A stretch of DNA of 64,000 nucleotides, taken from the IMG/VR virus record IMGVR_UViG_3300014208_000026, positions 96,001 through 160,000 of that record; one strand, written 5' to 3'. The notes beneath the pieces were generated by a model. That model was not told where the DNA came from. It was given only the letters and a program-made list of their open reading frames with translations, and searched no databases. How positions within the stretch are numbered: the first letter of the stretch is position 1; the number at the start of each line of letters is the position of its first letter. This DNA is from a virus (Duplodnaviria; Caudoviricetes). Of this stretch, positions 6,543-42,891 are shown piece by piece. Position numbers and translations under genes: made by a program.

Positions 6543-7160
6543 ATGAGGGAAACTAAGAACAAGAAGAGAGCACAACTGATCACCGACTACCAAGCTCGGG
6601 CCTCCGAGTTTGCGGTTGGTACCAGGGTGGCGCCGATCGGCGTGGACGTCTATTCCCATACGGGAGAGGTGAAAGCCGTTTTCCCCGCTATCGGTATGGT
6701 GGACGTGGAGTTCGCTTGGGGCTCGCAGCGTTTCCCTGTTGAGGACCTCAATATCATCGAAGACGCTCCGCTGGCCGCCCCTCAGCACGATTCTATTCCT
6801 GGCGGTCCGGCAAAGGTTTCCGTTCCTGGCGGTCCGACTCCCAAGACTGCGGCCCAGCGGCAGAAGACCGCCAAGCGGGTTGCCGAGGCTTTCGTAATGG
6901 CTTCCATCACGAAGAACGCTCTCTACTGGGGTGACAGGGATCGGAAGTACCGTGCGACCAAGAGGGAACTGGGTGAGGGCAATTACTTCTGCCCGAAGCA
7001 TCGTGACGTCCCGCTGCGTCCCGCCGTGTTCATGCGGGAGAACGGTAAGAGCCTGCGTCTCATGGGTTGCCCCGAGTGCATGTTCCTTATCCGTCGAGAC
7101 GATATCTGTCACGAGAAGCCCGTGGTGAACGTGACTGTGGAAATCGAGGGGGCTGAATAG
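6543..7160 (+). CDS. Hypothetical head-operon protein with C-terminal CPKH...CPEC zinc finger
   Basis: GGGAGG RBS before ATG 6543; KTAA and KTAKRVAEAF motifs; abuts the protease gene. Confidence 0.75.
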   Translation: MRETKNKKRAQLITDYQARASEFAVGTRVAPIGVDVYSHTGEVKAVFPAIGMVDVEFAWGSQRFPVEDLNIIEDAPLAAPQHDSIPGGPAKVSVPGGPTPKTAAQRQKTAKRVAEAFVMASITKNALYWGDRDRKYRATKRELGEGNYFCPKHRDVPLRPAVFMRENGKSLRLMGCPECMFLIRRDDICHEKPVVNVTVEIEGAE

Positions 7161-10100: not shown

Positions 10101-10475
10101 GGTAAGTCTGTGCCTTCTGCTCAGTCTGAGACGGCCCCGAACAACAACATCATCAAGCAGGCTGTCAAGAAGACGGCGGCTCAGTTCTACAACAACACTC
10201 TCTCCGCCATGCTCCGTACCGCTTCTTCGGATGCGGATCTCATGGATCGTGTGGCTGCATTGAATACTGCGTTCGGGATTTCCATCCCCGTGCCTCTGTA
10301 TCGTGCGGCTTTGAAATTCAGCGGTAGGAATACCACGCTGAAGGGTTATGTCGCCTCGTGCGAACGTGCTTTAGGCAGAAAGGTCGAAGCCGGGGAGGCC
10401 AAGACTTTAGTGCGTTTGGGGAAACTGCTGGAGCAGTTCTCCAATAAAACGGCAGCGAAACAGCAATCACGGTAG
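7161..10475 (+). CDS. Prohead maturation protease precursor (1104 aa; about 483 aa after removal of two inteins)
   Basis: Spliced exteins give NF^CEH and LSMG^CTTDFTICTKCG...FIEASWVGKPAF, the His/Ser pattern of HK97-type prohead proteases. Position upstream of scaffold and MCP. Confidence 0.85.
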   Translation: MAFLKFANARIITPDLGGQAGWKKVRTAAKKADVSPDLLEQASGILGKPFNPDDYLLTHCTIVSSVDVEPVPGAKIGKIKENGFTVNRIYGDYRITEDTLEQINANKDAWARGVILKSYQTFRGGQNFCFAPGTEVLMADGTYRPIEKVVAGDEVITHTGEAHKVTQTFVRDFEGPIQALYVDRFKDPLLVTGNHPFRAISVTASQLTSYSGAKLSSQVRYRRDQIVDSLRDGEGHFGKAFPAVREIKTLLAKSAMLAGDIAEAMGHKRTYSSVIIQRVLKRHTDQFFSRPLLVSEYPSLQKGRWCSRVWAVREDAPDLPDTDVKADKDWVAAEHFKAGDFILGPEQKLGQISEPEKATLLGYYLAEGCRLDPHKDYGVCLVFGAHERNLVEHAAKLAEGCFPGTTAHIQNPKNGALRVDLRGSEICKWMVRNGGIYSESKRLHPDVFSWDRESLLRMFAAWMAGDGDHHKGTLRLRGVSVSHELAQQMHRVAELCGIKSSVVFTRQKIGEVCSQVTMVIGGEPRVFNVIPRHHVWTVLVSKDSTPEVTCRNIRWGVPLHVVEDVHKRQEFAWWGGCRVHRVDSNESIPYKGKVHNIEVEEDHSYVVDYGIAVHNCEHIQITELSKGRIIDAVARDVGNSIYVDILIATDRKHTDLIRDIKSGKMGTLSMGCFLPGTQVSLADGSRVAIENVQAGDKVLTHKGRAREVLNKQVREGVWNIRRIQVAGVSAVITATDNHPFYVLRDEWEWIRADELQAGDLLCVPVGDQTASVVLSIESGTYEGPVHNMEVAEDNSYVVEGVAVHNCTTDFTICTKCGHVAVDDTDLCSHIKYEKGNTFYYPDGKKGIVAELCGHSSIDPTGGVYFIEASWVGKPAFLGAVLRNIIEAREVSPSTRKKAMEVLSSLPPQWTTNGRKKAASMYLSAFDDGMDEGTEEAPAESEGAPAESEGAASPWSDLEDKMVQKILQNVEKKLSDQLGPDGKSVPSAQSETAPNNNIIKQAVKKTAAQFYNNTLSAMLRTASSDADLMDRVAALNTAFGISIPVPLYRAALKFSGRNTTLKGYVASCERALGRKVEAGEAKTLVRLGKLLEQFSNKTAAKQQSR
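7545..9005 (+). mobile_element. Intein with LAGLIDADG homing endonuclease (487 aa)
   Basis: Starts CFAPGTEVLMADG; block B VTGNHPF; LLGYYLAEG and AWMAGDG motifs; ends VHNIEVEEDHSYVVDYGIAVHN followed by C+1. Confidence 0.95.
9174..9575 (+). mobile_element. Mini-intein (134 aa, no endonuclease)
   Basis: Starts CFLPGTQVSLADG; block B ATDNHPF; ends VHNMEVAEDNSYVVEGVAVHN followed by C+1. Confidence 0.95.
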
Positions 10476-12767: not shown

Positions 12768-13643
12768 ATGACTAACGTAAGTACCGCCCAGAAGCAAGAG
12801 ATCATCAGTCGCTACATCACCAGCCCCCAGGGCCGCGTCAAGCTGGCTGCCAGCATGACCCAGCCGCTTCGTACTCGGCGTGATTACACGTCGGTCGGCC
12901 GCAAGACTTTCCTGGTCGAGCAGCTTCCCGATGGCGCCTTGCCGCTGTACGATAAGGACCCCGACGTCACGGCGTTCGTGGTCGGCGAAGAAGGCGAGAA
13001 CATCCTGGCGGTCACGAAGCCTCGGCGCGTGATCTTCCCGCTGTTCGAGATCGCTTCGCTCCCCGAGATTCCTCTGACGCAGATCAAAGAACGTCGCTTC
13101 GATCTCATCGAGCGTGCTCAGGATCTGGCCCGTGCTCAGATCCAGGCCGCTGAGGATGAGCGCGTGTTCGCAATTCTGGACGCCATTGCCGTGGCGGGCT
13201 TTGATAGCCTTCCTGGCCAGATGAACCCTGACATCCCCGTCATTGCCCCCATCAGCCCGGCCGTCCTCGCGGATGCGTTCGCTCTGATCGAGGCTCATGA
13301 CCTTCGGGTTGCTCGTGTGTTCATGAATGCCCGCGATTACTCGGACCTGCGTAAGTGGGGCCGTGACATCCTGGACATCGAGTCCCAGGCTGCGCTGCTG
13401 AAGACTGGCCTGATGGCGACCCTCTGGGGCGCTCAGATCATCGTCAGCCGCCTTGTCCCCGTGGGCACCGTGTATGTCACTTGTGAAAGTGACATGTTTG
13501 GACGCATCCCCGTGCGTACGGAACTTACGGTTTTGAGTGCGGACGATCCCCGTGCGCGCACGATTGGGTTCTCCTGCTTCGAAAACCTGGGCATCGGGGC
13601 GTACAACCCCCGTGGCCTCACCCGTCTCACCGTAACCCGCTAG
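12768..13643 (+). CDS. Major capsid protein, HK97 fold (291 aa)
   Basis: GGAGG RBS; PLRTRRDY...GRK...PLFEIASLP...RRFDLIERAQ...AAEDERVF...LWGAQIIVS...ENLGIG pattern of large-phage MCPs; followed by a strong terminator. Confidence 0.9.
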   Translation: MTNVSTAQKQEIISRYITSPQGRVKLAASMTQPLRTRRDYTSVGRKTFLVEQLPDGALPLYDKDPDVTAFVVGEEGENILAVTKPRRVIFPLFEIASLPEIPLTQIKERRFDLIERAQDLARAQIQAAEDERVFAILDAIAVAGFDSLPGQMNPDIPVIAPISPAVLADAFALIEAHDLRVARVFMNARDYSDLRKWGRDILDIESQAALLKTGLMATLWGAQIIVSRLVPVGTVYVTCESDMFGRIPVRTELTVLSADDPRARTIGFSCFENLGIGAYNPRGLTRLTVTR

Positions 13644-13721: not shown

Positions 13722-13974
13722 GTGTCTGAAATAGGGACTCGCTATCCGGGCCTGTTCTTCAAAATCCCCTCATAGCATTTTCCGGTAGATGTTTGTTTAG
13801 ATCCCGATCCGTGCGGGCAGGTTTTAAGCCAGAGCCTCTCAAGGGTCCGGTCTTATTTGTTATCGGATGTTGAACTTTTTTCTGTTGCCCTGCCCCGCTA
13901 TAGAGTATAGTTATAACGGAACAGGAAACCGTCGGTGCCAGTTCAGCCGAGCCCGACCAGGAAAAGGAGTTCAC

Positions 13975-16900
13975 ATGAAGTTGACCCCCGAAATTCTCAA
14001 GGACCTGTATCTGGTGCAGTTGAAAACGGAGACTGAAATTGCCGGTATGTTCGGAACTTCCCAAGTCCAAGTTGGGCGCCTTCGTAAGAAGTGGGGCATA
14101 CCGACTTTGGGTAAGACAGGACGCCTGGAAAAATTGCTGCCTCCAGTTCTAACTTCCGAACAGGAAGAGGTTCTAATAGGGTCTCTGTTAGGGGATGGTT
14201 GTCTTAAAGGTATTTCGGAAAAGACGGCTCTGTACACGGAGACTCACGGACCTTCCCAATACGCCTATCTCGATTGGAAAGCCGAAATATTAGGTCCTTT
14301 TGCTCTAAGTGTTTATCCGACGATGAAAAGAGTAGGGGATAAAGAGTTTCCAGGTAGAGGCTTTACTACGCATGCTAGCACTGTTCTCAGGCCCTATTAC
14401 GATATGTTCTATCCTGCTCCGTCCCGTAAAAAGGTTTTTCCGGTTGATCTCTCCAAGAGGTTGACCCCTCTGGCTCTGGCAGTTTGGTATATGGACGACG
14501 GAAGTCTGGCAGGCACACACACTGCACGAATAGCTTTCGGACTGGACCCTTTAAGTCTGGAAAGGGCTTTACAGGCGCTACGTGATTTAGGGTTCAATCC
14601 TGTAGCCTACGGTAAAAAGGGCAATCAGGCTATTTGGCTCACGGGGGATACTCATCTGTTTTTGGACTTGACCGGCAAATACGTCTCAGAGCACATGCCT
14701 CAAAAGCTACCCTGTTGGACGGAAAGGCAGAAAGGAGATTTGAATGCCGAGAAATTAACACCGGAGCTGGCGGCTGAATTGTATTCTGGAAACTCTACAG
14801 TTGAGGATATTGCTGAAAAGTTCGGTGTCGGTACAAGCACCGTGAAACGCCGTTTGCGGGATGCTGAAACTCCGATGAGACGGTCTGGCCCACGTGATGC
14901 AGAGCCGGGGGATACTGCCATGCAGCCCCTTAGAGTTAAACCGAGTTTTCAGGAATGCGGGGTGGTTTTACCATGCCCTGACTACAACGGCCCTATAGAC
15001 AAGAGCAATTATCAGTGGGCAAAGAAAGCCGGATTGACTCCAGATACTCTACGGGTGATATATGCTAAGTACGGTGATGAAGAGATAGCTGAGCTATTCG
15101 GGGTTTCAGGTGTAGCCGTTGGAGTTCAGCGTAAGAAATGGGGCATTGAAAGTATCAGTGCCAGACAAAGAAGAGACAAGGTGGAACGCAAGGGTTTGCC
15201 CTCGCTCGACAACCTCACGCCTGAAGGGTTGAAGGTTCTTTCCAAAACTATGGGGGACCAGAAGATCGCTGCTATGCACGGAGTACAAAAGCCTGCGGTT
15301 TCTCGACTGAGGGAGCAGTGGGATATAGCGGCAACGTCTAAGTCTGAACGGGCCACTTCTGAAACGATACTGACGGATGAACAGAAAGAAGCCTGTATTG
15401 GAACACTTCTAGGGGACGCTCATCTTACAGAAAGCGGTAGCTTGAGAGTTTCGCACAGCCACGATCAGATCGGGTATCTGAAAGCTTTACGCGCTATTCT
15501 GGTTCCTTACGCTAGACCGATTCATTATTCTGAGTCTAGTATGCCTAGTGGCCAAGTGTGTTTCACTTTCGGTTTCAAGACGGTTCAGCATATGTGGTTG
15601 AAAGAACTCCGTAACATCTTCTATCCAGAGCCGGAAAAGGTGAAAGTATTCCCAGAGAGTATTATCCGCACTTTAACACCCCTATCACTGGCATACTGGT
15701 ATTTCGATGACGGTCACTGGGGTGATGTTCTATATATAGCCTTGGGTCCCATCTCAGATTATGAAAAAGAGTACATTCCAGTTTGGCTGAAAGACCGTTT
15801 TGGCTTTGACTCCTACATAAAGGGGAAACCCAACTGTCGACTGCTGTTCATTCGTGGGGCTTCTCATGAGATTTTCTTCAATCTGATCCGAAACTACGCC
15901 ATTCCAGATATGCTGTACAAGTTCCCGCCGAAGTACCGTCCTGCGGGTATTCTTCCCATCCACCCCGTTAGGACAACGCCGCAAATCAAGATCCCTCCCG
16001 ATCTGCTGGAGGGTTGTGAGGACTGGCTCTCTAAGACCTCTGTACAGCAAGAACAGACAGTCGATGATCTGTGCGGTTTCTGGCGGAGCCAGGGTTTCCC
16101 CCACTGTGAAATCCGCCCCGAGGAGCTGATTACTCTTTTGGAAGTTACTCCGGATCAGATAATCCATGAAGGTGTGATTCGACCCCGACAAGTCGGGCAA
16201 TCCCTTTGTCATGCTTTCATGCCTCATATCTGGAAGGCCCGTTCCAGGAGCAGTGAGCAAAGTCCTTTCGACCTATTCTCTGATGACACTACGCTCAAGG
16301 GAGCTTTGCGGTATCTGTTGGAGAAAGGCAGTAAGCCAACGGCTGCGGGATTGCGCGGGGCTCTTCGTTACTGGAGGTACTCAGGAGTTTACAATTTCCG
16401 GCCCTCCGCAGCTAAGGCTTTGGTGGACACCTATTGCGTTCCTGGAGGCACAGTGTGGGATCCCTGCGCTGGTTACGGCGGGCGTCTCTTGGGTACTTTG
16501 CTGTCCAGGAACTCCCCGAAGTACATTGCTTGCGAACCACAGTCTGAGACCTTCTGCCGACTGCAAGAGTTGGCAGGCTGGTTAGAGAAGTATCTCCCTG
16601 ACATTTCTTCCCGAGTGCAGTTGAACCACGTTCCCGCTGAGGAGTTCAAGTTGCCCGAGTACGTCGACATGGTTTTCACTTCTCCGCCGTACTGGCAGCA
16701 GGAGGTTTACGGAGAGGAAGAGACCCAATCTGGGATTCGGTACAAGACCTATGAGGCGTGGTTAGAGGGCTTCTGGAAGCCCGTGCTTCGACAGGCGGTA
16801 GCAAAGCTGAAAGCTGGTGGCTGGTTGGTTTTGAACGTCGACACTTTCGTTGCCAACCACAAGACCTATGACCTGCCTGGGGACACGATCGCTATCTGCA

Positions 16901-17667
16901 AATCGTTCGGGTTCGACAGGGAGCCGGAGACGTTGCGTTATGCTATGAACGGGGACAATTACGAATCAGTATTGTGTTGGAAGAAAGCGGTGGCTGTGGT
17001 TGAGGATTCTGTTCCCGTTCCCATTCCGTCGGTTCCGAATCAAGTGATTGTTTCCCGTTGTGAAAACTGCGGGATTACGGTTCCTATTGGTGGGATCAAG
17101 GACGGTAAGTGCCCTGAGTGCCGTGTTCCAGGAGGGCACCGGACGTGCTGTAAGGGCTGTGGCGAAGTGTTCCAAGCCGTTCGAAAGGACCGAGAGTTCT
17201 GCGATGAAGCTTGTAGGGCTCGTTGGCGTCGCAGAGAATTCCGCAAAGTCCATCCAGCCAAGACCACCCGCACCTTCACATGCCAGTTCTGTGGCAAGAA
17301 GTGGGAGTCCTCGGAACTTGGATCGCCAAACAAGTGTACCGAGTGTAAGGCCGCCAAGGAACTCGCGAGCCGAACCAAGGTCTGCCAGTACCGTCATTGC
17401 GGCCAGACTTTCGTCGACACGTCGGAAAAGAACAGCATGAGTTACTGTCACGTGGAACACCGCCGCAGAGAGAAGCTTCTTCGTTCCGGAATGGCCCCTG
17501 ATCTGAGCTATTTCACGAAGCCGGATCCCGTGCTCGACACGGCTACTCCTGCAATGCCCGCAAGCACTGACAGCCCGACAAGTCAGCCCAGCGTGTCTGA
17601 CTTGTTTGGCATGCCTCCCCGCTCGGACCCTAAGATCCACAGTTCTGATTCCGACTACTCCATTTAG
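13975..17667 (+). CDS. Fusion: HTH repeats + two LAGLIDADG endonuclease domains + SAM-dependent amino-DNA methyltransferase + C-terminal CxxC zinc fingers (1230 aa)
   Basis: AAGGAG RBS at ATG 13975; LIGSLLGDG...LAVWYMDDG; CIGTLLGDA...LAYWYFDDG; NFRPSAAK; motif I WDPCAGYGG; motif IV FTSPPY; several CxxC pairs. Confidence 0.85.
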   Translation: MKLTPEILKDLYLVQLKTETEIAGMFGTSQVQVGRLRKKWGIPTLGKTGRLEKLLPPVLTSEQEEVLIGSLLGDGCLKGISEKTALYTETHGPSQYAYLDWKAEILGPFALSVYPTMKRVGDKEFPGRGFTTHASTVLRPYYDMFYPAPSRKKVFPVDLSKRLTPLALAVWYMDDGSLAGTHTARIAFGLDPLSLERALQALRDLGFNPVAYGKKGNQAIWLTGDTHLFLDLTGKYVSEHMPQKLPCWTERQKGDLNAEKLTPELAAELYSGNSTVEDIAEKFGVGTSTVKRRLRDAETPMRRSGPRDAEPGDTAMQPLRVKPSFQECGVVLPCPDYNGPIDKSNYQWAKKAGLTPDTLRVIYAKYGDEEIAELFGVSGVAVGVQRKKWGIESISARQRRDKVERKGLPSLDNLTPEGLKVLSKTMGDQKIAAMHGVQKPAVSRLREQWDIAATSKSERATSETILTDEQKEACIGTLLGDAHLTESGSLRVSHSHDQIGYLKALRAILVPYARPIHYSESSMPSGQVCFTFGFKTVQHMWLKELRNIFYPEPEKVKVFPESIIRTLTPLSLAYWYFDDGHWGDVLYIALGPISDYEKEYIPVWLKDRFGFDSYIKGKPNCRLLFIRGASHEIFFNLIRNYAIPDMLYKFPPKYRPAGILPIHPVRTTPQIKIPPDLLEGCEDWLSKTSVQQEQTVDDLCGFWRSQGFPHCEIRPEELITLLEVTPDQIIHEGVIRPRQVGQSLCHAFMPHIWKARSRSSEQSPFDLFSDDTTLKGALRYLLEKGSKPTAAGLRGALRYWRYSGVYNFRPSAAKALVDTYCVPGGTVWDPCAGYGGRLLGTLLSRNSPKYIACEPQSETFCRLQELAGWLEKYLPDISSRVQLNHVPAEEFKLPEYVDMVFTSPPYWQQEVYGEEETQSGIRYKTYEAWLEGFWKPVLRQAVAKLKAGGWLVLNVDTFVANHKTYDLPGDTIAICKSFGFDREPETLRYAMNGDNYESVLCWKKAVAVVEDSVPVPIPSVPNQVIVSRCENCGITVPIGGIKDGKCPECRVPGGHRTCCKGCGEVFQAVRKDREFCDEACRARWRRREFRKVHPAKTTRTFTCQFCGKKWESSELGSPNKCTECKAAKELASRTKVCQYRHCGQTFVDTSEKNSMSYCHVEHRRREKLLRSGMAPDLSYFTKPDPVLDTATPAMPASTDSPTSQPSVSDLFGMPPRSDPKIHSSDSDYSI

Positions 17668-27433: not shown

Positions 27434-28264
27434 ATGACCATTCAGCAGCTCTTTGGTTCTAATCCCGATTCCATCGGAGTCCGTTTACAGGAATCCTCCG
27501 AGCTTCTCGATTCCCTTCCGGATGCTTCTGTCCAGTTGATCGTGACGGATCCTCCGTACGGAATTTCCTACCAGTCGAACTACTGCAAAGCCGGAAAAAG
27601 AAAGCCGATATCGGCGGACTGGAATTTTCAGATCGGCCCGTTCCTCCGTTCTGCCGAGAGGGTTCTGAAACCAGGAGGGGCGATTTACCTGTTTAGTAGA
27701 TGGGACGTGTATCCTCTCTGGACCCTGAATATGCCCGCAGAACTGAAGCTGAAGAACGTGATCGCCTGGGTGAAGGATAACCACTCGGCGGGGGACTTGA
27801 CGGGGAACTTCGGGTTCAAGTGGGAGGCTATCCTGTTCATGGTGAAGGGCAGGCACCAACTCAGAGGTACCCGTTGGCCTAACGCTTGGGAGTTCCCGAG
27901 AGTTCCTTTTGCACGACAGATTCATCCAGCAGAGAAACCCGTGGCTCTACTGGAGAGGGCCATTACAGCTTCATCAGACGTAGGGGATATGGTGGTCGAC
28001 CCATTCTGCGGGTCGGGCTCTACAGGAGCGGCGGCTTGCAACCTAGGCCGTAAAGCAATCCTGGGGGACGTAGACGCCGATTACGTGCGGAGGGCTAGGG
28101 AGAGGTTGGGGTTGCCTGTTGAGCAGGTGGAGACGGAGAAAGAGATCCCTAAGGATCCGAATTGGGGCAAGGGCTCTATCGGGGTCTGTACGGATGCCCT
28201 TGAAGGTGTTCATCCTGAAGACGTGGCGGCTCTGGTCGAGTGGTTCCGGTCGACGAGGGCCTAA
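27434..28264 (+). CDS. DNA methyltransferase, N6-adenine/N4-cytosine beta class
   Basis: Motif IV TDPPY precedes HPAEKP and motif I DPFCGSGSTG. Confidence 0.92.
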   Translation: MTIQQLFGSNPDSIGVRLQESSELLDSLPDASVQLIVTDPPYGISYQSNYCKAGKRKPISADWNFQIGPFLRSAERVLKPGGAIYLFSRWDVYPLWTLNMPAELKLKNVIAWVKDNHSAGDLTGNFGFKWEAILFMVKGRHQLRGTRWPNAWEFPRVPFARQIHPAEKPVALLERAITASSDVGDMVVDPFCGSGSTGAAACNLGRKAILGDVDADYVRRARERLGLPVEQVETEKEIPKDPNWGKGSIGVCTDALEGVHPEDVAALVEWFRSTRA

Positions 28265-28304
28265 GTCTGTCTGACTCCTTTCACGTTTTTCATCCTCTAG
28301 AATC

Positions 28305-28314
28305 GGTACAGTAG
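28305..28314 (+). promoter_or_regulatory. GGTACAGTAG promoter-like motif
   Basis: Exact motif upstream of the 28366 gene. Confidence 0.45.
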
Positions 28315-28365
28315 AGAACACGGATTCTTAGCGGAGTCCTGTTTAGACTAAGGGAGTGAGGCACC

Positions 28366-29145
28366 ATGGGCGTAATTTTTTCGCAGGGAGACATTTTGGG
28401 CCGTGGGGACCTGGATGCGTTTTTCCAAAATTCTCTCGGGAATCCCCAGAATTTATTCGAGATCACCTATGCCATCTACTACGTGACCCCCGTCACCGAG
28501 GTAGAGGTTCTCATTGGTTCTGCCGCCCGTGTCCCCGTGAATCCCGCCGTGGGGGAATACTACGCGGCTCTCCAGGTTCCCGCCAGTGCCGCCGCTGGGG
28601 ATTACCGTATCCGGTGGACGTTCAGGGAGTTCGCAGGAGCACCCCAGCAGTTGATCGTCCAGGAGTGGGGGGTTGTGCTGGCAGGTACCACTACGGGGAC
28701 GAGTACGTTTTCTACGGGTGAAACAGAGATGATCTGGAAGTTGAGAGTATTTTTAAGAGATTCCAACCCAGATCGCAACTACCATTTCAGACCACCTGAA
28801 GCAGAAGGCTCGGTCGGCCAGTACAATCAAGTGTTCGGGCAGATATGGGAAGATGATGAGTTGCTTATGTATCTCGAAGCAGCTCTCGACTGGTTCAACA
28901 TGTTCCCGCCCGAGACAGAAGCATACAGCACGCTTGACCTGCTGTTACAAAGAAAGCCTGTCTGGCGAACTGCTATCATAACAGGTGCAATTGCACATGC
29001 TTGTACAGCATTAGCATTAAATTGGATCTCGGACGAATTTTCCGTGGAAGAGAATACTAATATAAAAGTACATTTAGATAGTGATTATTCGTTAGCTATT
29101 CCGATTGGGGAGCTATGGGATATTATTTATGGAGATACTAAATGA
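28366..29145 (+). CDS. N-terminal half of a putative neck/head-tail adaptor (225-aa extein) fused to a 34-aa N-intein
   Basis: Extein ends LNWISDEF, followed by SVEENTNIKV...IPIGELWD (intein block A pattern) and a TGA stop. Confidence 0.8.
   Translation: MGVIFSQGDILGRGDLDAFFQNSLGNPQNLFEITYAIYYVTPVTEVEVLIGSAARVPVNPAVGEYYAALQVPASAAAGDYRIRWTFREFAGAPQQLIVQEWGVVLAGTTTGTSTFSTGETEMIWKLRVFLRDSNPDRNYHFRPPEAEGSVGQYNQVFGQIWEDDELLMYLEAALDWFNMFPPETEAYSTLDLLLQRKPVWRTAIITGAIAHACTALALNWISDEFSVEENTNIKVHLDSDYSLAIPIGELWDIIYGDTK
29041..29142 (+). mobile_element. Short N-terminal fragment of a split intein (IntN, 34 aa, Ser1, no Cys)
   Basis: S-V-x-x-x-T-x-I...I-x-I-x-E-L pattern of Ser-initiated inteins; no other intein blocks in this ORF. 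Confidence 0.75.
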
Positions 29146-30149
29146 ATAAAAAGCAAGCTCTTTCAGTATTGAAAATGAATTTCAAATTACTTGAGACTCT
29201 TATAGAGGAGGGCATTCTTGCCTGTGATTCTTCTGGAGACATAGATCCGGAGTCTTTTGTTTGTCTTGAAGAAAACTTCCATTTTGTGTTCTGTTTAGAG
29301 TGCGGGGCTAGGGTGGCTCTTCTGAACGGTAAGCATCTTAAAAGCTGTTCAGGCATGACACAGGCTGCTTATTTAGAGAAACATCCAGGGGCCGCTGTGC
29401 TGTCGGGCATGTCCGCCGCATTCAAAACCAAGACCGAAGACCAGAAACGGGCTCAGTCCGAAAAGCTCAAGGCCAGATTCCAAACTCCCGAGGGGGAGGT
29501 TACTCGACAGCAGATTTCAGAAGCCTCAAAGAAAATGCAGGCGTCAGAATACGGGGAGATAGCTGCTGAGCACCTTCGAACAATGACCCGCAGTCCTGAA
29601 GGGCGTGCTCGTATTAGTAAGCAAATGTTTGCACGGTACGCTTCTGGGTGGAATCCTGTAAAAGACTGGCATGCTGCAAACAAAGAGGAGTCTAAGCAGA
29701 GGGCTTTTCATGCCAGGAGCTTTATCCAGAAAAAGAAATCAAAGCCTCATCTCGCTTTCAAAGCTGCGATGGAAGAAGCAGGGTTATTGGGTTTCGAGAC
29801 TGAGTGTCCTGTGGGGTATTACCACATAGATGAAGCTCGGCCCGATCTTAAGTTGTCCGTGGAAATTGATGGATGTTTCTGGCATGGTTGTGTAGATTGT
29901 GGTTTTCCAGGAACTCCTGGAATAAAGAAAACAGATAAGCGGAAAACGACTTTTCTGCTTAATAGAGGATGGACGATACTCCGCTTCAACGTGTGCGTCA
30001 TTAAAAAAGACTTGGCCGGTTGTCTAGATAAAGTAAGGCAGAGCGTGGAATCCTTGTCACAGCAGAAAACCACTCTCAAAGTACGTGCTACAATCTGCGA
30101 CATTTTCGGAGCCCATAAAGAGGAGGTGTCCAATGGCACTAAGCCCTGA
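29142..30149 (+). CDS. Free-standing Vsr/DUF559-like (PD-(D/E)XK) endonuclease with zinc finger and helical DNA-binding repeats
   Basis: FCLECG...HL; YHIDEARPDLKLSVEIDGCFWHGC...RGWTILRF; ATGA overlap with the upstream gene and overlap with the downstream start. Confidence 0.85.
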   Translation: MNKKQALSVLKMNFKLLETLIEEGILACDSSGDIDPESFVCLEENFHFVFCLECGARVALLNGKHLKSCSGMTQAAYLEKHPGAAVLSGMSAAFKTKTEDQKRAQSEKLKARFQTPEGEVTRQQISEASKKMQASEYGEIAAEHLRTMTRSPEGRARISKQMFARYASGWNPVKDWHAANKEESKQRAFHARSFIQKKKSKPHLAFKAAMEEAGLLGFETECPVGYYHIDEARPDLKLSVEIDGCFWHGCVDCGFPGTPGIKKTDKRKTTFLLNRGWTILRFNVCVIKKDLAGCLDKVRQSVESLSQQKTTLKVRATICDIFGAHKEEVSNGTKP

Positions 30150-30546
30150 AGTCAGAAAGGCCATTCGAGAAGCCTATGAGGCAGGTACCCTGCAAGTTGA
30201 TTCCGTCGACGCCGCTACCGGTAAGGTGTTCCGTGCTGTAGTTGCGGACGTTCTGCGGCACCGGACTCCCCATAAGCCTCTTGTCAGAGTAGAGGTTGAT
30301 ACGGGGCAGTGGGTCGAGTGTACTAAGGACCATAGCCTGTTTGGCAGGGATGCTGAGGGGCAGATTGTTCCGGTAGAAGCTGGAACCTTGCAGCCTGGGG
30401 CTTCGATTGTGGTGGTGAAGGACGGGCAGGCGGTAGACGTCCAGGTGATTTCCTATGAGGAAGGCGCACCCGCGGAATTTACCTTTGACTTGGCCGTTCC
30501 GGGGCCGGAGAACTTTGTACTCTCCAACGGTATTTTGGCTCACAAC
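30133..30546 (+). mobile_element. Long C-terminal fragment of the split intein (IntC, ends His-Asn, Ser+1)
   Basis: Has blocks B, F and G but no block A. Confidence 0.88.
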
Positions 30547-30774
30547 TCCTATTCGTGTGGTGGAATATCATTAGACCTAGAGAAGTCATCTAAGTATGAA
30601 TCAATCAAACAGAACGCTGAGAGTCAATTTGATAAGGCTACGGAAGCTAAAGCTAGAACAACAAAGTATGTTAGAGGATTAAAACAACAACGTTTCGGAA
30701 TGGGTGTGCGCAGTTCCTTTGGTCCGGCAACAGGTCATGGTATATTATCACCCCGCTCGTTTACGGGCGGTTAG
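30133..30774 (+). CDS. C-intein (138 aa) fused to the 75-aa C-terminal half of the putative neck protein
   Basis: Own AGGAGG RBS before ATG 30133; block B CTKDHSLF; F/G blocks FTFDLAVPGPENFVLSNGILAHN; extein SYSCGGISLDLEKSSKY. Confidence 0.85.
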   Translation: MALSPEVRKAIREAYEAGTLQVDSVDAATGKVFRAVVADVLRHRTPHKPLVRVEVDTGQWVECTKDHSLFGRDAEGQIVPVEAGTLQPGASIVVVKDGQAVDVQVISYEEGAPAEFTFDLAVPGPENFVLSNGILAHNSYSCGGISLDLEKSSKYESIKQNAESQFDKATEAKARTTKYVRGLKQQRFGMGVRSSFGPATGHGILSPRSFTGG

Positions 30775-30862
30775 TAGTAAAAATCAATAGTATAGAGTAG
30801 ACTCCGGTAGGGGTGTGTTAGATGTGTGCAATCAAAGCTGGTACTATATTTTCAATTTTTCC

Positions 30863-30882
30863 CCATAGCCCTTTCTAAGTAG
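30863..30882 (+). promoter_or_regulatory. Late-promoter variant CCAT-N12-GTAGAA
   Basis: Nearly the same as the 32538 and 58561 copies, including the downstream AA(A)CC. Confidence 0.5.
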
Positions 30883-31072
30883 AAACCACGGCGTCTGCGC
30901 GAACAGACCCGGGGCGTGACCGACAACCCTGAGAAGGGGGCTACTGATGTTCCCTTCTACCGGAAAAAATCTGCCCCCATGCCGAATCTACTTTGTTCTA
31001 TCGGGTATACTTAAGAGGCACCCTCTCGAACGAGGGTCTCTGACGCCACAAACAAGTTCGGCGAGGTGAGTC

Positions 31073-31849
31073 ATGCCTGTTACGTGCCCTTACTGTTCCA
31101 GAGAATTTTCAGGGGACAAGCTTAGTGCAAGGCATCTTTCTATATGCGATCCTTCGTGCCGTATTCCGATATTCCCCTGTCTCTGCGGACACGAAGCTAC
31201 AAGCAATACCCAAATGAAACGGCACCACAAAGTCTGTCCTGTTTGGCAGGCTCGTGATGTCGAGGCTGTCAAAAGAGCCCGTATGCGTGAAACGAGTTTG
31301 GCCCGTTACGGGGTAGAGAACGCGAATCAGACAGAGGAGGCTCTGGCCAAGAGGGCGCGTACCAATCTGGAGAGATATGGCGCAGAGAACCCTTTTTGTC
31401 GGGAGTCTTCTCTTTTTGAAGAGGTTCAGATTGGTTCTAAGGAAAACAGAGTTTATGCCACAGGGGAAGATTGCGTGTTCTCCCGTCCGGAAGTGAAAGA
31501 GAAGATTCGGAACTACTGGCAAGAGAACCATGGTGTTGTTGGGCCCCAGCAGGTTCCTGAGATTCGAGAGGCTACGCGACAGACGAACCTGGAACGTTAT
31601 GGTACGGAAGAGGTTCTGGCCGCTCCCGAAATCCGTCAGAGGATTCGAGATACTTGTGAGGCTGTTTATGGCGGCCCTGCTCCTTCGTGCAGTCCGGAGG
31701 TGATAGCGAAGCAGCTAGAAACTAAGCTGTCTCGTTGTGAAGTGCCTTGGGCGGAGGACTTGCTTGTGTCTGATACTCCGCCCGTTGAATCGGTATCTGC
31801 CCCAACCATCCTCGATCTCTTCTCCTCTTCTAAGAACCCTGCCAAGTAG
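31073..31849 (+). CDS. Zinc fingers + (T/S)xL[AE]RYG repeats (homing-endonuclease-type DNA-binding repeats); no nuclease domain seen
   Basis: GAGGTG RBS; CPYC...H...C and CLCG...H; repeats TSLARYG, TNLERYG x2, TCEAVYG. Confidence 0.7.
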   Translation: MPVTCPYCSREFSGDKLSARHLSICDPSCRIPIFPCLCGHEATSNTQMKRHHKVCPVWQARDVEAVKRARMRETSLARYGVENANQTEEALAKRARTNLERYGAENPFCRESSLFEEVQIGSKENRVYATGEDCVFSRPEVKEKIRNYWQENHGVVGPQQVPEIREATRQTNLERYGTEEVLAAPEIRQRIRDTCEAVYGGPAPSCSPEVIAKQLETKLSRCEVPWAEDLLVSDTPPVESVSAPTILDLFSSSKNPAK

Positions 31850-31934
31850 ATAGGGCCCCGTCGACCCTTTCCATCTTTGCCGCACAGCCCGTTTGCTAAT
31901 TGCTTTTTGCAGAAAGGGCAGACAGCCACAGCCT

Positions 31935-32132
31935 CCGGCTCTGCATCTTCGTGCTTAGCACCTGACCTCAACCGGCTCTGCATCGTCGTGCTCAGCGCCC
32001 AGTCTCCCCCTTACGTTCAACCCTTACTCCCAACCGGCTCTGCGTCTTCGTGCTCAGCGCTCAACCCCAACCGGCTCTGCACCTTCGTGCTTAGCACCTC
32101 ACCCCAACCGGCTCTGCATTATCATGCTTAGC
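31935..32132. repeat. Five copies of a 25-bp core CCGGCTCTGCATCTTCGTGCTYAGC, mostly at a 37-bp period
   Basis: Cores start at 31935, 31972, 32034, 32071 and 32108; spacers are 12, 37, 12 and 12 nt and C-rich. Confidence 0.93.
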
Positions 32133-32152
32133 CCCCAACCCCAACTGACTCC

Positions 32153-32181
32153 TTGACACATCTGGGGGTTTGGGGTAAGGT
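32153..32181 (+). promoter_or_regulatory. Sigma70-like promoter TTGACA-N17-TAAGGT
   Basis: Perfect -35, 17-nt spacer, TAnnnT -10. Confidence 0.65.
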
Positions 32182-32211
32182 ACAGAATGGTATTGGGTAT
32201 GGAGAAGAGGC

Positions 32212-32400
32212 ATGGAGACTCTGACCCTAAGTGACGTTCAAAAGTGCAAGAGGCTTTGGGATAAGCTACTGAAATCCCATCAGGATCTTGATGCAGCTAT
32301 AAGGGCCAGGGGTGACTCCCCTCAGATTAGAGATCTCTATCGAGAATTCCAAGAATTTAAGCTTTCCAGCCAGAGAAAGATCGGCAACCTTTTAATTTAG
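32212..32400 (+). CDS. Hypothetical helical protein (62 aa)
   Basis: GAGG RBS; downstream of a sigma70-like promoter. Confidence 0.6.
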   Translation: METLTLSDVQKCKRLWDKLLKSHQDLDAAIRARGDSPQIRDLYREFQEFKLSSQRKIGNLLI

Positions 32401-32537
32401 ATAGCTACCAGGAGTCTGCCAAGCGTGCAGGACAGCTTAGAGGACGGTTGTAAGGAGGACTCGGATTTGGTGTCGGCAGAGCCGTCCGTGAACTAGGGTC
32501 TTTCCCCAACCCCCCAACCCTCTGTTCGTTTTTCAGC

Positions 32538-38665: not shown

Positions 38666-39910
38666 TTAGTTCTTTGGAGTCTGAATAGAGAAGGAGGCCG
38701 CAGTCATCATTCGACGGGCGTAGTCCTGTACGAGCTGACGCATCTTGTCGAATCGGCAGTTTCCGATTCGGGCTTTGACGTGTTCCAGCGTTTGTTCGGA
38801 CAGATCGATGGACCTGCCTCGATAGAAGCTTTTGTCTACGAACATCCAGGCATAGCCAGAAGAAGTCTGGGCCCCGTTTGCCAGATTGAACAGTACGTGG
38901 GACACAGAGGTCATCAACTGGGCGTCGGTGAACTTTCCGTCCGCTACGTCCTCGATGATCTTTTTCATCTCTACGCAGGCGTCCTCTACGTTCTTGGGGT
39001 TGGTGGCTGCGTAGAGAACAGCCGTGCCGTTATCCCAGGAGCCCATCTCGAACATCGCGGTATCGTAGCACAGGCCCTTCTCTTCTCGAAGCCGAAGGAA
39101 CGCCAGGGAGTGCATTCCGCCGCCGATGAGATCCTGGGCAATATCATCGGCGTGGTGATTCAAACAGCTATCCTTGAAGGCGAGCCCTGGCATGAGGAGG
39201 GCTACATACGCCTGATCGGCTGCATGTTGGAAGAGGTGGGTTTTCGGGGAGGCCCACGTTCCGGTATCCGATTCGATTGTCGGAATGCTGTTTGGAGTGC
39301 CGGGTTCCAGGACGTATTGGTCCAGAACGATGGAGAGGTCGGGGTTTGCAGAGAGATCCCCGACCAGGGCTACAACTACGTTCTGTGCGGTGTAGTTGGC
39401 GGCCTTGTAGACTTTCAGGTCGTCCAGGGTCATATCGAGGATATCCTGGCGCTCACCGAGTGTTTCTCTGCCCAGGATAGGGCCGAAGTGGGCGGTCTCG
39501 GTCATGCCGAAGAAGTGGGAGGCGGGGTCATCCTCGAACCTCTGGCGTTCTTCCAGAATGACGTTCCGCTCTCGTTCGAATTCATCCTGGTCCAGGGAAG
39601 GCGTGAAGGCCATTTCGCAGAGGTAGCCGAGGGCTTCCAGGATCTTGTCGGGGGTAGTGTCGATGTAGAATGCGGTTCGGTCGTTGTCAGTGTAGGCGTT
39701 CGTGCTACCTATGGCCGCGATGAGGCGGTTCATCTCTTCATAGGATCTTTTCGCTGTCCCTTTGAAGATCATATGCTCCAGGAAGTGGGCCGTTCCCGAT
39801 CGCACGTCCTGGATGGAGCCTGAGTTGACGATGATGCGGACCGACACGACCGGTGTCGGCATATGATGCTTGATGACCCGGAACCGGCCGATTGTTTCTA
39901 CGACGGGCAT
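38666..39910 (-). CDS. M16-family (pitrilysin/insulinase) zinc peptidase
   Basis: GTAHFLEHMIFKGT (HxxEH); NAYT; ERNVILEE; C-terminal GGGMHSLAFLRLREEKGLCY. Confidence 0.93.
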   Translation of the reverse strand: MPVVETIGRFRVIKHHMPTPVVSVRIIVNSGSIQDVRSGTAHFLEHMIFKGTAKRSYEEMNRLIAAIGSTNAYTDNDRTAFYIDTTPDKILEALGYLCEMAFTPSLDQDEFERERNVILEERQRFEDDPASHFFGMTETAHFGPILGRETLGERQDILDMTLDDLKVYKAANYTAQNVVVALVGDLSANPDLSIVLDQYVLEPGTPNSIPTIESDTGTWASPKTHLFQHAADQAYVALLMPGLAFKDSCLNHHADDIAQDLIGGGMHSLAFLRLREEKGLCYDTAMFEMGSWDNGTAVLYAATNPKNVEDACVEMKKIIEDVADGKFTDAQLMTSVSHVLFNLANGAQTSSGYAWMFVDKSFYRGRSIDLSEQTLEHVKARIGNCRFDKMRQLVQDYARRMMTAASFSIQTPKN

Positions 39911-39943
39911 GGCAGGATTCCTTTTCCGAAGGTTATTGCTCCG

Positions 39944-39953
39944 CTACTATACC
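39944..39953 (-). promoter_or_regulatory. GGTATAGTAG promoter-like motif (minus strand)
   Basis: Exact motif upstream of the M16 gene. Confidence 0.55.
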
Positions 39954-40124
39954 CGAACGGAGGGATTCAGATTCGAGGGGAGTGGTTTCTCGTCAAAGGA
40001 GACGAGTTATGAGGGTGTTTCTGGTTTGTCTCGTCGTAGATTGCGAGTTAGCCTGTTTTCGGGAACCTTTTCTGGACGTATCTCGCAACGGTTGCGAGAT
40101 AGGTTGCTGGATAGATTGCGAGAT

Positions 40125-40640
40125 TCAGGCCAGGGCCCCGAGCAACAGGACCATGATCTCGTCGATCACGTCGGATTTAGCTCCAGGGCGGCCCTGACAG
40201 GTGGTCTTGACGAGTTTCTTGACGGCAGGGGTCTCATCCCTAAAGAGAATATAGACGTAGACCTCCCCCACCTTGGAAGCAGCGGCATTCGCGGGATCTA
40301 CGCGGGACAGGCTACCCGTTACTCCGACTGACACAGAGGCTCCGGTGCCCCTCATACCTACGGCGGCCATCTCTCGTGCTACCTCGAAGGAGTAGACAGA
40401 GTACTCCGCTATCTGTCTCTCCATGGTTCGTGCCCAAGCTCCTGTTTCGTCTACGGAGCGGGCCAGCCGGATTTTGGCCTCGTTGCAGTACACCACGAAC
40501 CCCTGTTTGAAGATCTCGCTGGCTCCAGGGATATCGGTGATTGCGTTCGCTAGTCCTCCACCGGTACAGGATTCGACCGTGGTGAGGGTGAGTTTCTTGG
40601 CGGCCAAGGTTTTGACAACCTCTTCAGCAAAATGGCTCAT
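40125..40640 (-). CDS. pncC: CinA C-terminal domain / NMN deamidase PncC-like
   Basis: TVESCTGG...ITDIPGASEIF...YCNEAKI...VAREMA.G...GVTG. Confidence 0.88.
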   Translation of the reverse strand: MSHFAEEVVKTLAAKKLTLTTVESCTGGGLANAITDIPGASEIFKQGFVVYCNEAKIRLARSVDETGAWARTMERQIAEYSVYSFEVAREMAAVGMRGTGASVSVGVTGSLSRVDPANAAASKVGEVYVYILFRDETPAVKKLVKTTCQGRPGAKSDVIDEIMVLLLGALA

Positions 40641-40972
40641 TCAGGAACCTCTGTGTGGGCGGTTACAACTTGCTTGAAGCCCTGGTCTGTCAGCACCTTG
40701 TCCCCAAGGAGTATTTCCGAGACGAGGACCCAGCGGGGGTCTTGGCGGCCTCTCATGGTGAGAATCCGCAAGTCCTCGTCAGGTCTTGTTTCCAGGATTT
40801 CTTCCATGGACGTGATTTTGACCATGAAGTCATATCCGGACGGGCGGATTTCATCTCCGATGTTGACGTTTTGGGCTTCTGCCCAGGCGGGGTAGTTGGC
40901 TCCCTTTTTACAAACCCAGAGCTTGAAATTCGGGGTGAGTTTCCACTGGTTGTTGAACAGGATAGGGTTCAT
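40637..40972 (-). CDS. Hypothetical protein (111 aa) with two Hint-like W-x5-IGD/LGD elements
   Basis: WAEAQNVNIGDEI and WVLVSEILLGDKV; 4-nt overlaps with both neighbours. Confidence 0.6.
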   Translation of the reverse strand: MNPILFNNQWKLTPNFKLWVCKKGANYPAWAEAQNVNIGDEIRPSGYDFMVKITSMEEILETRPDEDLRILTMRGRQDPRWVLVSEILLGDKVLTDQGFKQVVTAHTEVPE

Positions 40973-42891
40973 TCTTGGATCCTCCAATCTGCGAACAGTG
41001 CCTTTTCAGGGTCTTCATCATGGTCCTGGCCCGACTTGAAAGCCTTGCCGATCATGCGCAGCGCCTTGGCCTCGTCGGTTCCGATCGTGCGGTGCTCTTG
41101 GACCTTTAACTTCCACCACCGGACCAACCGCTCCGCCCGAGCCCGCTCCGGCTCGCTGTTTGGGTCAAGAGGATTCACGCCGTTCTGGGACAGGACCAGA
41201 TCGATGAACGGACGTTCCGCCTCGGTTTCCGTCTTCTTGAGCTGGTGCCAGTGGAACATCGGCTGGAAGAAGTCGACGTAGAACTCCCGCTGAGAGCGAT
41301 TCTTGAGGAGGTGCTCGATCACCCGCCAGGAGAGCAGATCGAAGGGCAACACCTCGCTGTCGTAAGCGCCGAAGGTGAGCCTGTTTTTTCGGTACTGCGG
41401 TTCCGGGTTGTATTTGAACGCAAAGTCAAACGTGTAGGGGTAACTTTTGAATCCCGATTCCAGGGTATGCAGGTCACCGCTGGAAGGCCAGCGGTCGATA
41501 CGCTTGTTTCCGGTCCGGCCATACAGAGGATGATGTCGATCAGAGGAATGTCGATAGTCAGGAGTACCGATCCAAAGTACGCGCTGACCTTCTCCCAGCT
41601 TGGACTGCAACCACTCGCGGTAGCTTTTCCAGGTGATGCTGTCCAGGGCGGATCCTGGCAGAATCTTGTTGCCTTCGTCGTTACGGACGAGACGGAAGTA
41701 GAGGTCGACGTGCTCAGGGTTGAAAACATCGATCTTGGGGCAGGGCAAGGGATGGAACACAGGGGACCGTTCCAGCAGGCCCTGCACGGCGATCAGTCCG
41801 CCGATATACTGCTTCAGTTGGTTCTCTGCATTCTTCTTGTCACTGCCCCAAACAGTCTTCTCCTGGTGCAGGAAATCAAACTCCTCGGTTTGCTGGAAGA
41901 AGCGGGGCCACAGTTTCACGTCCGTCCAGATTCGGTAGAGGCACTCGCCGTTTCTAATCAGGAGGTAGGTCTTCTTGTCCTCCTCCGCTTCCTGAGCCTT
42001 GAAGTAGCGTTCGGCGGGGTCCTCGTTATAGCCCCGATCCTTTTCCTTACGACGGATGCGGAGGGCTACGATCCCCTTCTGAGCAGGCAGAACTTGGTTC
42101 AAGTGGGCAGAGTCGGACGTGACCCACGAGTCGAAAGCTTCGATGGTCCTGTAGTCGAACTGGCCGATCTTCTCGGGGTTGTGAAGCCAGTCCCACAAGG
42201 CACACTCTTCGTCCATACAAAGCGTCTGCTGGTAAATCGTGATGGGCTCGGTCGCAGAGGCCGGAGTCCCTGTGGACAGTTGGAGGATCTCCTCGTGGGA
42301 CCCCAGGAACAGCTCGATGATCCAGATATTCTCTAATCGCTTCTTGACTTCGGCGTTGAGGACGGCGACCTGACTTTCCAATTCTCGCTTCTGGAGTTCC
42401 AGTTCCCCCTGCTTGCGGGCCAGCTCAAGCTGCTTGGCTTCGATCTCCGACCGCTTGGCCTGGGTGATTCCGGCCAGGGTCTGGTTTCTCACAGGAGCAA
42501 GGTCGGTAGAGCCACTCAGGGCTCGTTCGGTGGTCTGTTGGATGCTGTTCGGGAGCATCCCGATGCTGAAGTCTTCAGCCTCGTCTCCCTCGGGAGGGAT
42601 CTGGGCGATCTCTACGTGGCGTCCATCTACGATGACGGAGACGGGGATATAACCTCCCGGGAGGCTTTCGAGGTAGGTGTCTTCGAGGTAGCCCCTGGCA
42701 CTGAGAACTTGGGACTTCACCCTGTGGTCTTTGTCCGTGTATTGATGGGGGAACAAAACTCCGACACGGAACACACGGACAGCCTTGGCAAGGGAGTCAG
42801 CGGTGATGTGCTTGGGTTGCGTGGCCCCGCCATGGTAGGAGTCCAGCCCGAAGTAGTAAGCGGTCGATTTTCCGTCGTACTGGCACTTCAT
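40969..42891 (-). CDS. Large hypothetical protein (640 aa) with a central coiled coil
   Basis: ATG 42891 just after the HD gene stop; typical codon bias; no family recognised. Confidence 0.75.
   Translation of the reverse strand: MKCQYDGKSTAYYFGLDSYHGGATQPKHITADSLAKAVRVFRVGVLFPHQYTDKDHRVKSQVLSARGYLEDTYLESLPGGYIPVSVIVDGRHVEIAQIPPEGDEAEDFSIGMLPNSIQQTTERALSGSTDLAPVRNQTLAGITQAKRSEIEAKQLELARKQGELELQKRELESQVAVLNAEVKKRLENIWIIELFLGSHEEILQLSTGTPASATEPITIYQQTLCMDEECALWDWLHNPEKIGQFDYRTIEAFDSWVTSDSAHLNQVLPAQKGIVALRIRRKEKDRGYNEDPAERYFKAQEAEEDKKTYLLIRNGECLYRIWTDVKLWPRFFQQTEEFDFLHQEKTVWGSDKKNAENQLKQYIGGLIAVQGLLERSPVFHPLPCPKIDVFNPEHVDLYFRLVRNDEGNKILPGSALDSITWKSYREWLQSKLGEGQRVLWIGTPDYRHSSDRHHPLYGRTGNKRIDRWPSSGDLHTLESGFKSYPYTFDFAFKYNPEPQYRKNRLTFGAYDSEVLPFDLLSWRVIEHLLKNRSQREFYVDFFQPMFHWHQLKKTETEAERPFIDLVLSQNGVNPLDPNSEPERARAERLVRWWKLKVQEHRTIGTDEAKALRMIGKAFKSGQDHDEDPEKALFADWRIQE

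Follow-up and report, generated by a model that had tools for sequence, protein, structure and literature searches.

A putative cysteine-independent, atypically split intein with a Vsr-like endonuclease gene between its halves in the head-to-tail adaptor gene of a huge phage

The DNA analysed here, referred to as the window, is a stretch of 64,000 nucleotides (bases 96001-160000) from the 257-kb IMG/VR record IMGVR_UViG_3300014208_000026. The record is estimated to be only about 49% complete, which implies that its source is a huge (jumbo) phage, and the public runs that contain the window sequence are groundwater metagenomes. Three tightly packed open reading frames (ORFs) on the + strand were found at the coordinates at which a sequence-only reading of the window had described a fractured neck gene, that is, a gene for a virion neck protein divided within a split intein and harbouring an endonuclease gene between the intein halves. 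The locus, with the N- and C-terminal intein halves denoted IntN and IntC, is laid out as follows (aa, amino acids).

28366..29040, + strand: N-extein, residues 1-225; an Ig-like beta-sandwich followed by the initial helices of the putative adaptor domain; ends ...NWISDEF
29041..29145, + strand: IntN, 34 aa, starting at Ser1 (SVEENT...GDTK), then TGA; motif N1 and the N2 helix PIGELWDII
29142..30149, + strand: putative free-standing homing endonuclease gene (ORF2), 335 aa; DUF559/Vsr/ROS_MUCR, endonuclease PHROG and profile matches
30121..30126, + strand: AGGAGG ribosome-binding site, 6 nt 5' of the IntC start codon, as seen in the sequence
30133..30546, + strand: IntC, 138 aa, with a helix (EVRKAIREAYEAG); ends ...GILAHN; matches to Pfam Intein_splicing and to inteins in the PDB
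30547..30774, + strand: C-extein, 75 aa from Ser+1 (SYSCGGISLDLEKSSKY...), plus stop; last part of the putative adaptor domain, colinear with uninterrupted homologues

ORF1 (28366-29145, 259 aa) ends in a TGA stop at 29143, and the ATG of ORF2, which lies in a different frame from ORF1 and ORF3, overlaps that stop (ATGA). ORF3 (30133-30774, 213 aa) begins with an ATG and overlaps the end of ORF2 by 17 nt. The ORFs, the lengths of both intein halves, the AGGAGG and intein blocks B, F and G reported in the sequence-only reading were all confirmed in the sequence.

Within the window the two intein halves are in a common reading frame, an observation that might favour removal of the middle segment at the RNA level as an intron, or an artefact in which a contiguous, endonuclease-containing intein had been broken by sequencing errors or recoding. 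The sequence-only reading was correct on this shared frame. It had named two intervening stops, at 29143 and 29170; the number of in-frame stops between the halves is in fact 17. In relatives of the locus the halves lie in different frames, hence the common frame in the window appears to be a coincidence. A search of positions 27500-32500 with Rfam gave only two chance-level matches at E <= 1 and no match to an intron model, in line with the absence of an intron proposed earlier. The endonuclease ORF overlaps both of its neighbours, and the intein motifs stand exactly at the protein junctions. Furthermore, run X2, from a separate groundwater study, contains the same DNA with zero differing letters, and its records at 29054-29204 and 29930-30368 span both ORF junctions, so that the stops are not an error of one assembly. 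We therefore give an intron or an artefact almost no weight. No RNA datasets with this sequence were listed among the public runs.

The intein character of the two halves is well defined. IntC matches the Pfam family PF14890 (Intein_splicing) with 47.8 bits (cut-off 35.8; E 1.7e-12), and a profile built from five IntCs matches solved mini-inteins in the PDB down to E 2e-13. These alignments begin at about residue 50 of the solved mini-inteins, which indicates that the approximately 50 N-terminal residues of the intein come from the 34-aa tail of ORF1 together with the first helix of ORF3. The set of catalytic residues is complete, comprising Ser1, block B T64-K-D-H67, D119 in block F, H137-N138 in block G and Ser+1. 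IntN carries only motifs N1 and N2, and blocks B, F and G are all in IntC, as expected from the atypical short-IntN split that had been proposed; likewise both nucleophiles are serine. Among the relatives Ser1, T64, H67, D119, H137, N138 and Ser/Thr+1 are invariant, and Ser1 and Ser/Thr+1 are present in 20/20 split and 6/6 contiguous versions. The window IntN aligns with those of 12 other protein clusters and 19 loci, all of which begin with serine. Identity of the window intein to its relatives is 27-37% over the first 30 residues of IntN and 52-56% for IntC.

IntC also contains an NX motif, R42-H43. Pasch et al. 2023 (PMC10189870) describe a histidine at this position, usually with Arg or Lys before it, as characteristic of cysteine-independent inteins. 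Five Ser1 IntCs all have His43, which lines up with the I-R-H of PI-PkoII (2cw7), another Ser1 intein; three relatives carry R immediately before the histidine, and two carry E or Q. In LR745208.1, an uncultured 485-kb phage, a related Cys1 intein has Ala at the equivalent position. Invariance in the Ser1 relatives together with Ala in the Cys1 relative fits the published motif. As had been read from the sequence, IntN is free of cysteine and IntC has a single one, C63; this residue is not conserved, and the cysteines of the IntCs of relatives lie variously at positions 63; 75; 62 and 70; 62 and 85; and 8. The split falls directly after the N2 helix PIGELWDII, at the point where the contiguous relatives P0139, L114, L112 and L106 join ...ELxxI(x)3-5 to the next helix. 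A split after helix alpha1 is the 'S2' position found in atypically split TerL inteins (PMC13014065). We thus classify the intein, from its motifs, as a class 1, cysteine-independent, atypically split intein of the S2 type.

The extein halves were examined through their homologues. A search with the N-extein returned 746 homologues at E <= 1e-3, and the junction counts were taken from the 120 closest homologue cluster representatives. The sequence-only reading had suggested looking for uninterrupted homologues of the joined extein, and 103 of these 120 clusters proved to be uninterrupted, running through ...DEF-(D/S/N)YS-IGG(I/V)S... with lengths of 295-300 aa. Joining of DEF|SYS in the window would give a protein of 300 aa that is colinear with these relatives and matches their length, in agreement with the trans-spliced product and WISDEF-SYSCGG junction predicted previously. 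Thirteen clusters, including that of the window, are fractured at the same site and have a Ser1 IntN tail of 31-37 aa after DEF. Gp319 of Tunturiibacter phage Tunturi_5 and the corresponding sequence of LR745208.1 are continuous across the window's intein site. The +1 residue in the 103 intein-free alleles is mostly aspartate (D 94, S 6, N 3), whereas it is Ser or Thr in every intein-bearing allele, the pattern to be expected if the residue is used as a nucleophile.

Identification of the host protein came from structure, since Pfam and PHROGs gave zero matches for the exteins or their uninterrupted homologues and Foldseek against the PDB gave only Ig-like matches to the N-terminal domain. An AlphaFold2 model was obtained for the closest uninterrupted homologue, P0005, from a 72-sequence alignment (mean predicted local distance difference test score, pLDDT, 76; predicted template modelling score, pTM, 0.46). 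The model shows an N-terminal Ig-like sandwich (residues 1-104) followed by a helical domain with a beta-hairpin. When model residues ~116-285 were compared using the exhaustive aligner VIA-align, the top ranks were head-to-tail adaptor chains from more than 12 portal-tail structures, including those of Pa223, cyanophage A4, SU10, GP4, KHP30, VP1, T4 gp13, phage 812, PhiM1 and DEV. The superpositions have Z of 9.0-11.2 with 101-121 residues aligned at a root-mean-square deviation of 2.9-5.3 A; for helical domains Z below ~13 is not decisive alone, and the weight lies in the consistency of the matches. Tunturi_5 gp319, a distant relative, is annotated in GenBank as a head-tail connector, and a major head protein gene lies 15 kb upstream of the locus (12768-13640; phrog_2522, 3e-50). 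Taken together these data support the assignment of the host protein as a head-to-tail adaptor (neck) protein, as the earlier description of a neck gene had it. In the model the intein site is located between a long helix (198-222) and the hairpin (227-234).

We then considered whether the two intein halves are able to associate. Complex prediction with ORF1 residues 214-259 (IntN plus 12 extein residues) and ORF3 residues 1-150 (IntC plus 12 extein residues) gave an interaction score (ipSAE) of 0.73 as against 0.04 for the best of three controls. Three runs had at least 82% of contacts in common, with partner pLDDT of at least 69, and IntN residues 247-255 touch IntC in the predicted complex. 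The mark used for this score had been calibrated, being reached by 51/78 solved complexes and 2/108 mismatched pairs; split inteins do have solved structures, so the pass may in part reflect likeness to these.

Such a prediction shows docking rather than chemistry, and the intein halves could conceivably have lost splicing and serve solely for docking, keeping the two pieces of the adaptor in non-covalent association within the neck. There is precedent in that phage genes split by homing endonucleases can act as non-covalent assemblies, as described for fragmented nrdA (PMC3045599). Against this, all of the residues needed for chemistry (Ser1, TxxH, the NX His, the block F Asp, HN and Ser/Thr+1) have stayed invariant at 27-56% identity, and the exclusive use of Ser/Thr+1 in intein-bearing alleles, where 94/103 intein-free alleles have Asp, is sensible only with the nucleophile in use. 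Moreover, approximately 170 intein residues placed mid-adaptor beside the beta-hairpin would be hard to fit into a 12-fold neck ring. We regard docking without splicing as improbable.

Selection on the intein coding sequence provides a further line of evidence. Ratios of nonsynonymous to synonymous substitution (dN/dS) for the intein were 0.05 for L102/L104, 0.06 for L104/L109 and 0.23 for L098/L099; two pairs of one split and one contiguous intein gave 0.04 (L104/L114) and 0.22 (L112/L118), and the remaining pair, L098/L013, gave 0.43 with too few changes to tell. The intein coding sequence of the family thus appears to be under purifying selection in 5/6 close pairs. Collectively the conserved chemistry, the pattern at the junction, the predicted complex and the purifying selection in the family make it very likely that the locus encodes a working trans-splicing system.

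We propose the following model. A class 1, cysteine-independent mini-intein would sit in the adaptor gene at ...DEF|SYS..., and a free-standing Vsr-like (EDxHD) endonuclease gene would have inserted into the loop that follows the first helix of that intein. The adaptor would consequently be made as two polypeptides, one consisting of the N-extein and the 34-aa IntN and the other of the 138-aa IntC and the C-extein. The short IntN would dock into the nearly complete IntC and rebuild the HINT (Hedgehog/intein) fold, upon which an N-O acyl shift at Ser1, attack of Ser+1 on the ester and cyclisation of Asn138 would follow in turn. The intein halves would be released, and the resulting 300-aa adaptor would be seamless and carry Ser at a position occupied by Asp in most relatives. 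The endonuclease would be the selfish driver of this arrangement, presumably cutting intein-free or endonuclease-free alleles of co-infecting relatives, and repair of a cut allele would copy the endonuclease gene plus flanking sequence. We infer the splicing activity, the activity and target of the endonuclease, and the essentiality of the adaptor from sequence.

The product of the middle gene has recognisable nuclease features. ORF2 matches Pfam DUF559 with 23.0 bits (cut-off 20.6; E 7.7e-5) and has weaker matches to ROS_MUCR (1e-4) and Vsr (0.04) as well as a match to an endonuclease PHROG. A single-sequence search of the PDB with ORF2 gave no meaningful match, and a profile of five orthologues was needed; this matched the DUF559 protein 3hrl (4e-6), E. 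coli Vsr 1cw0 (1.7e-4) and I-Bth0305I 3r3p (7.5e-4). The protein appears to begin with a MucR-like zinc finger, followed by a helical region for DNA binding and, at the C-terminus, a Vsr-like/EDxHD nuclease, in which the EDxHD-equivalent residues D230, E241, D243, H248 and D265 are invariant across the aligned orthologues. The Vsr-like character suggested before is consistent with these matches, and ORF2 is probably a Vsr-like/EDxHD homing endonuclease, with its cleavage activity and target presumed from this likeness.

I-Bth0305I, the prototype EDxHD homing endonuclease, was described from a group I intron (Taylor et al. 2011, PMC3239194; 3r3p). Like ORF2 it combines a DNA-binding region at the N-terminus with a Vsr-fold nuclease at the C-terminus, and its Asp196, Asn208/His64, His213 and Asp222 correspond to D230, D243, H248 and D265 of ORF2, with E241 as the family Glu. 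ORF2 differs in being free-standing inside a split intein and in its N-terminal MucR-like zinc finger, and the profile match between the two reaches only E 7.5e-4.

Several observations weigh against the proposed model. The window IntN is the most divergent of the family, has LDSD where LPDG is the usual turn, and is very AT-rich (G+C content at third codon positions, GC3, 0.235). The endonuclease reads FNVCV near its C-terminus where relatives have WEHD or WEHE, such that this copy may be decaying despite having retained D230, E241, D243, H248 and D265. The synonymous divergence (dS) of the window copy is saturated against every relative, and it is too diverged for a dN/dS of its own. As regards the host protein, the adaptor assignment consists of a Z 9-11 fold match of a largely helical domain and one GenBank annotation, and an intact second adaptor gene may be present elsewhere in the missing part of the genome.

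Some of these points could be accounted for if the window copy had lost its function and were decaying, with either the intein or the gene dead, and if the phage were defective or its assembly incomplete. The divergent and AT-rich IntN, the endonuclease without its WEHD motif, a seemingly truncated endonuclease-like gene (DUF7487) on the 3' side and a record that is 49% complete would all fit. In contrast, all three ORFs are open and have start codons and ribosome-binding sites, the full set of catalytic intein residues is retained and the prediction of the IntN-IntC complex passes. Two groundwater studies, of 2018 and 2022, contain the identical sequence, which suggests a persisting phage, and no second adaptor copy was found in the 257-kb record. 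On balance a decaying locus is unlikely, slightly more so than docking without splicing, and a working trans-splicing system remains our favoured interpretation.

The window locus is, as judged from the metagenomic sequences, one member of a large family that includes unsplit versions. The fractured-gene arrangement described in the sequence-only reading, with a free-standing endonuclease between the halves, recurs in 20 other contigs: 16 IMG/VR contigs found via IntC and 4 other metagenomic contigs (L011, L013, L015 and L016) found via their N-halves. Six further IMG/VR contigs have a contiguous mini-intein at the window's adaptor site, and unsplit inteins at the same site are also seen in the protein representatives P0139, P0142, P0148 and others. 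The inteins of L114 (contiguous) and L104 (split) are near-identical, and the difference between them is an endonuclease gene between ...IIKEE and RMMDN...; L112 and L118 form a second near-identical contiguous/split pair. These pairs imply that the split is the direct result of a free-standing endonuclease gene being present in, or lost from, the loop after the first intein helix, and they point to recent gain or loss of that gene.

Other members differ in the endonuclease. At L011:5777-6754 the original endonuclease gene is reduced to a C-terminal remnant of ~60 codons, and the gap is filled by another Vsr-like ORF (5805-6566) that is 21% identical to the original; here the endonuclease has apparently been replaced inside the same split intein. 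In P0151 (519 aa), P0156 (513 aa), P0143 and P0167 the reading frame of a Vsr-like endonuclease continues into the N-terminus of IntC, and these fusions have no internal start codon nearby. They may represent an intermediate stage at which an intein captures an endonuclease in a non-canonical position. If real, the fusions would be split inteins whose Vsr-fold nuclease occupies a position not known to hold intein endonuclease domains.

The adaptor gene is fractured more than once in L113:1982-5630 (IMGVR_UViG_3300035150_000015), where it lies in three pieces in the order N-extein plus Cys1 IntN; PD-(D/E)xK-like endonuclease; IntC plus middle extein plus Ser1 IntN; Vsr-like endonuclease; IntC plus C-extein. 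One protein would then be assembled by two different atypically split inteins, of the Cys type and the Ser type, which are presumably orthogonal, in what would be a natural counterpart of engineered three-segment ligation. In LR745208.1 (L001:6001-8375) the break in the adaptor gene lies elsewhere, at LRDQ|CPDRDYHF, and is due to the related Cys1/Cys+1 intein, which is atypically split with a 33-aa IntN and has an unrelated 347-aa endonuclease between its halves. Two inteins occur in the adaptor genes of P0124, P0125, P0129 and P0133, and L116/P0135 has an intein at a further site near the adaptor C-terminus (FGPF|SGRG). The adaptor gene thus appears to be an intein hot spot. Whether the empty, contiguous, newly split, fused and doubly split forms together record intein evolution as it happens at a non-canonical site is, in our estimation, an even question.

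Base composition along the locus forms a mosaic. The window has an overall G+C content of 0.55, against which GC3 is 0.68 in the first half of the N-extein, 0.42 in its second half, 0.24 in IntN, 0.46 in the endonuclease, 0.58 in IntC and 0.33 in the C-extein. The fall from 0.68 to 0.42 concerns the last 340 nt of the N-extein (28701 onward). This mosaic, in which the extein flanks on either side of the insertion are low in GC, would be consistent with co-conversion tracts acquired from a lower-GC donor during homing. A donor of the flanks was not found, the closest DNA relative (L103) being only 74-76% identical. A search for near-identical phage records, by megablast of 20 kb against GenBank phages, gave no match.

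Fractured genes were described by Dassa et al. 2009 (PMC2677866), who reported 26 such loci in DNA synthesis and repair enzymes and terminase, half of them with Vsr-like endonucleases. They occur mainly in phage and have tightly overlapping ORFs (PMC2677866). The window locus resembles these in having an endonuclease gene between split-intein halves, in its phage origin and in its tight ORF overlaps. It differs in that its host would be a virion adaptor protein rather than a DNA enzyme or terminase, and in that its split lies after the first helix, whereas canonical fractured genes are divided at the usual endonuclease site into a long IntN and a short IntC.

Natural atypically split inteins include AceL-TerL and GOS-TerL, split at S2, and VidaL and PolB16, split at S1, with IntNs of 15-37 aa (PMC13014065, PMC11766414). 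GOS-TerL and AceL-TerL (Thiel 2014; Bachmann and Mootz 2015) come from phage genes in metagenomes and are split after helix alpha1, with 25-37 aa in IntN and 104-115 aa in IntC (PMC13014065, PMC11766414). The window intein shares with them the S2 split and a phage gene in a metagenome, and GOS-TerL likewise has Ser1. Both TerL inteins have Cys+1 (AceL also Cys1) and are cysteine-dependent, in contrast to Ser1/Ser+1 in the window. Sequence likeness is remote (engineered consensus CatC, 6dsl_B, E 0.5) and the host gene is a different one. The closest parallel in chemistry is PolB16 OarG (PMC10189870), which is also natural, atypically split, Ser1/Ser+1 and cysteine-independent and has the NX-motif histidine. 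PolB16 OarG is split after strand beta2 (S1) with a 15-aa IntN, where the window intein has an S2-type split and a 34-aa IntN; its host is a PolB polymerase from a sheep-gut metagenome, whereas the window intein is in a putative adaptor gene with many natural variants.

Compared with solved tailed-phage adaptors such as Pa223 (9nwi_A), cyanophage A4 (9k09_d), SU10 (7z47_A) and T4 gp13 (9lu4_D), the modelled host protein shares the helical domain with its beta-hairpin and differs by an extra N-terminal Ig/macroglobulin-like domain of ~105 residues and by identities of only 6-18%. Literature searches on inteins in adaptor, neck or portal proteins, on jumbo-phage split inteins and on natural genes with two split inteins, which covered few subscription journals, did not turn up a description of this family. 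Both mechanism and layout are of a textbook kind; it is the allele and the combination of properties that are new.

Cysteine-less split inteins are rare, and PolB16 is slow and prone to side reactions (PMC13014065); PolB16 OarG has been described as the only known natural cysteine-less atypically split intein, other natural candidates being lacking (Humberg et al., March 2026, PMC13014065). The window locus and its ~20 relatives are candidate natural members of this class, with an IntN free of Cys and an IntC whose Cys is not conserved. If active, the window intein would have no natural precedent as a Ser1/Ser+1 split intein of the S2 type, and the family would offer dozens of natural variants for thiol-free protein semisynthesis. 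For the phage, a virion component that is presumably essential would rely on repair at the protein level, a step forced on it by a selfish element. A structural neck protein would also widen the range of genes that tolerate the fractured arrangement, published cases being replication, repair and packaging enzymes. The locus is unsurprising in principle, and its use would lie with protein engineers and as a comparative system for endonuclease-split inteins, the closely related contiguous, split, fused and doubly split versions allowing the origin of the atypical split site to be studied by comparison.

The genes on either side of the locus are of different kinds. Directly 5' lies an N6/N4 DNA methyltransferase gene (27434-28264; Pfam N6_N4_Mtase, 1.6e-31), in place of which the relatives have other small genes. 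The next gene 3' (31073-31849) encodes the 258-aa DUF7487 homing-endonuclease-like protein (Pfam 9e-20; PHROG 'homing endonuclease' 1e-17). Its relatives are 350-490 aa long and carry a terminal Vsr-like nuclease domain that is absent from the window copy, which looks truncated. A link between this gene and the intein was considered and rejected: it follows 6/6 of the intein-bearing loci first examined, yet also comes after the adaptor gene at 34/81 intein-free loci, and we therefore treat it as separate from the intein, a free-standing element in its own right.

The Intein_splicing family also matches a 1104-aa ORF at window positions 7161-10475 and, in other parts of the record (G000:C1:20743-21174, 39073-41691 and 76991-78322), ORFs of 1539, 1627 and 1078 aa. 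By these matches the phage would have several more inteins besides the one in the adaptor gene. A 1266-aa ORF in the window (13867-17667) contains a LAGLIDADG endonuclease segment (phrog_11023, 1e-43).

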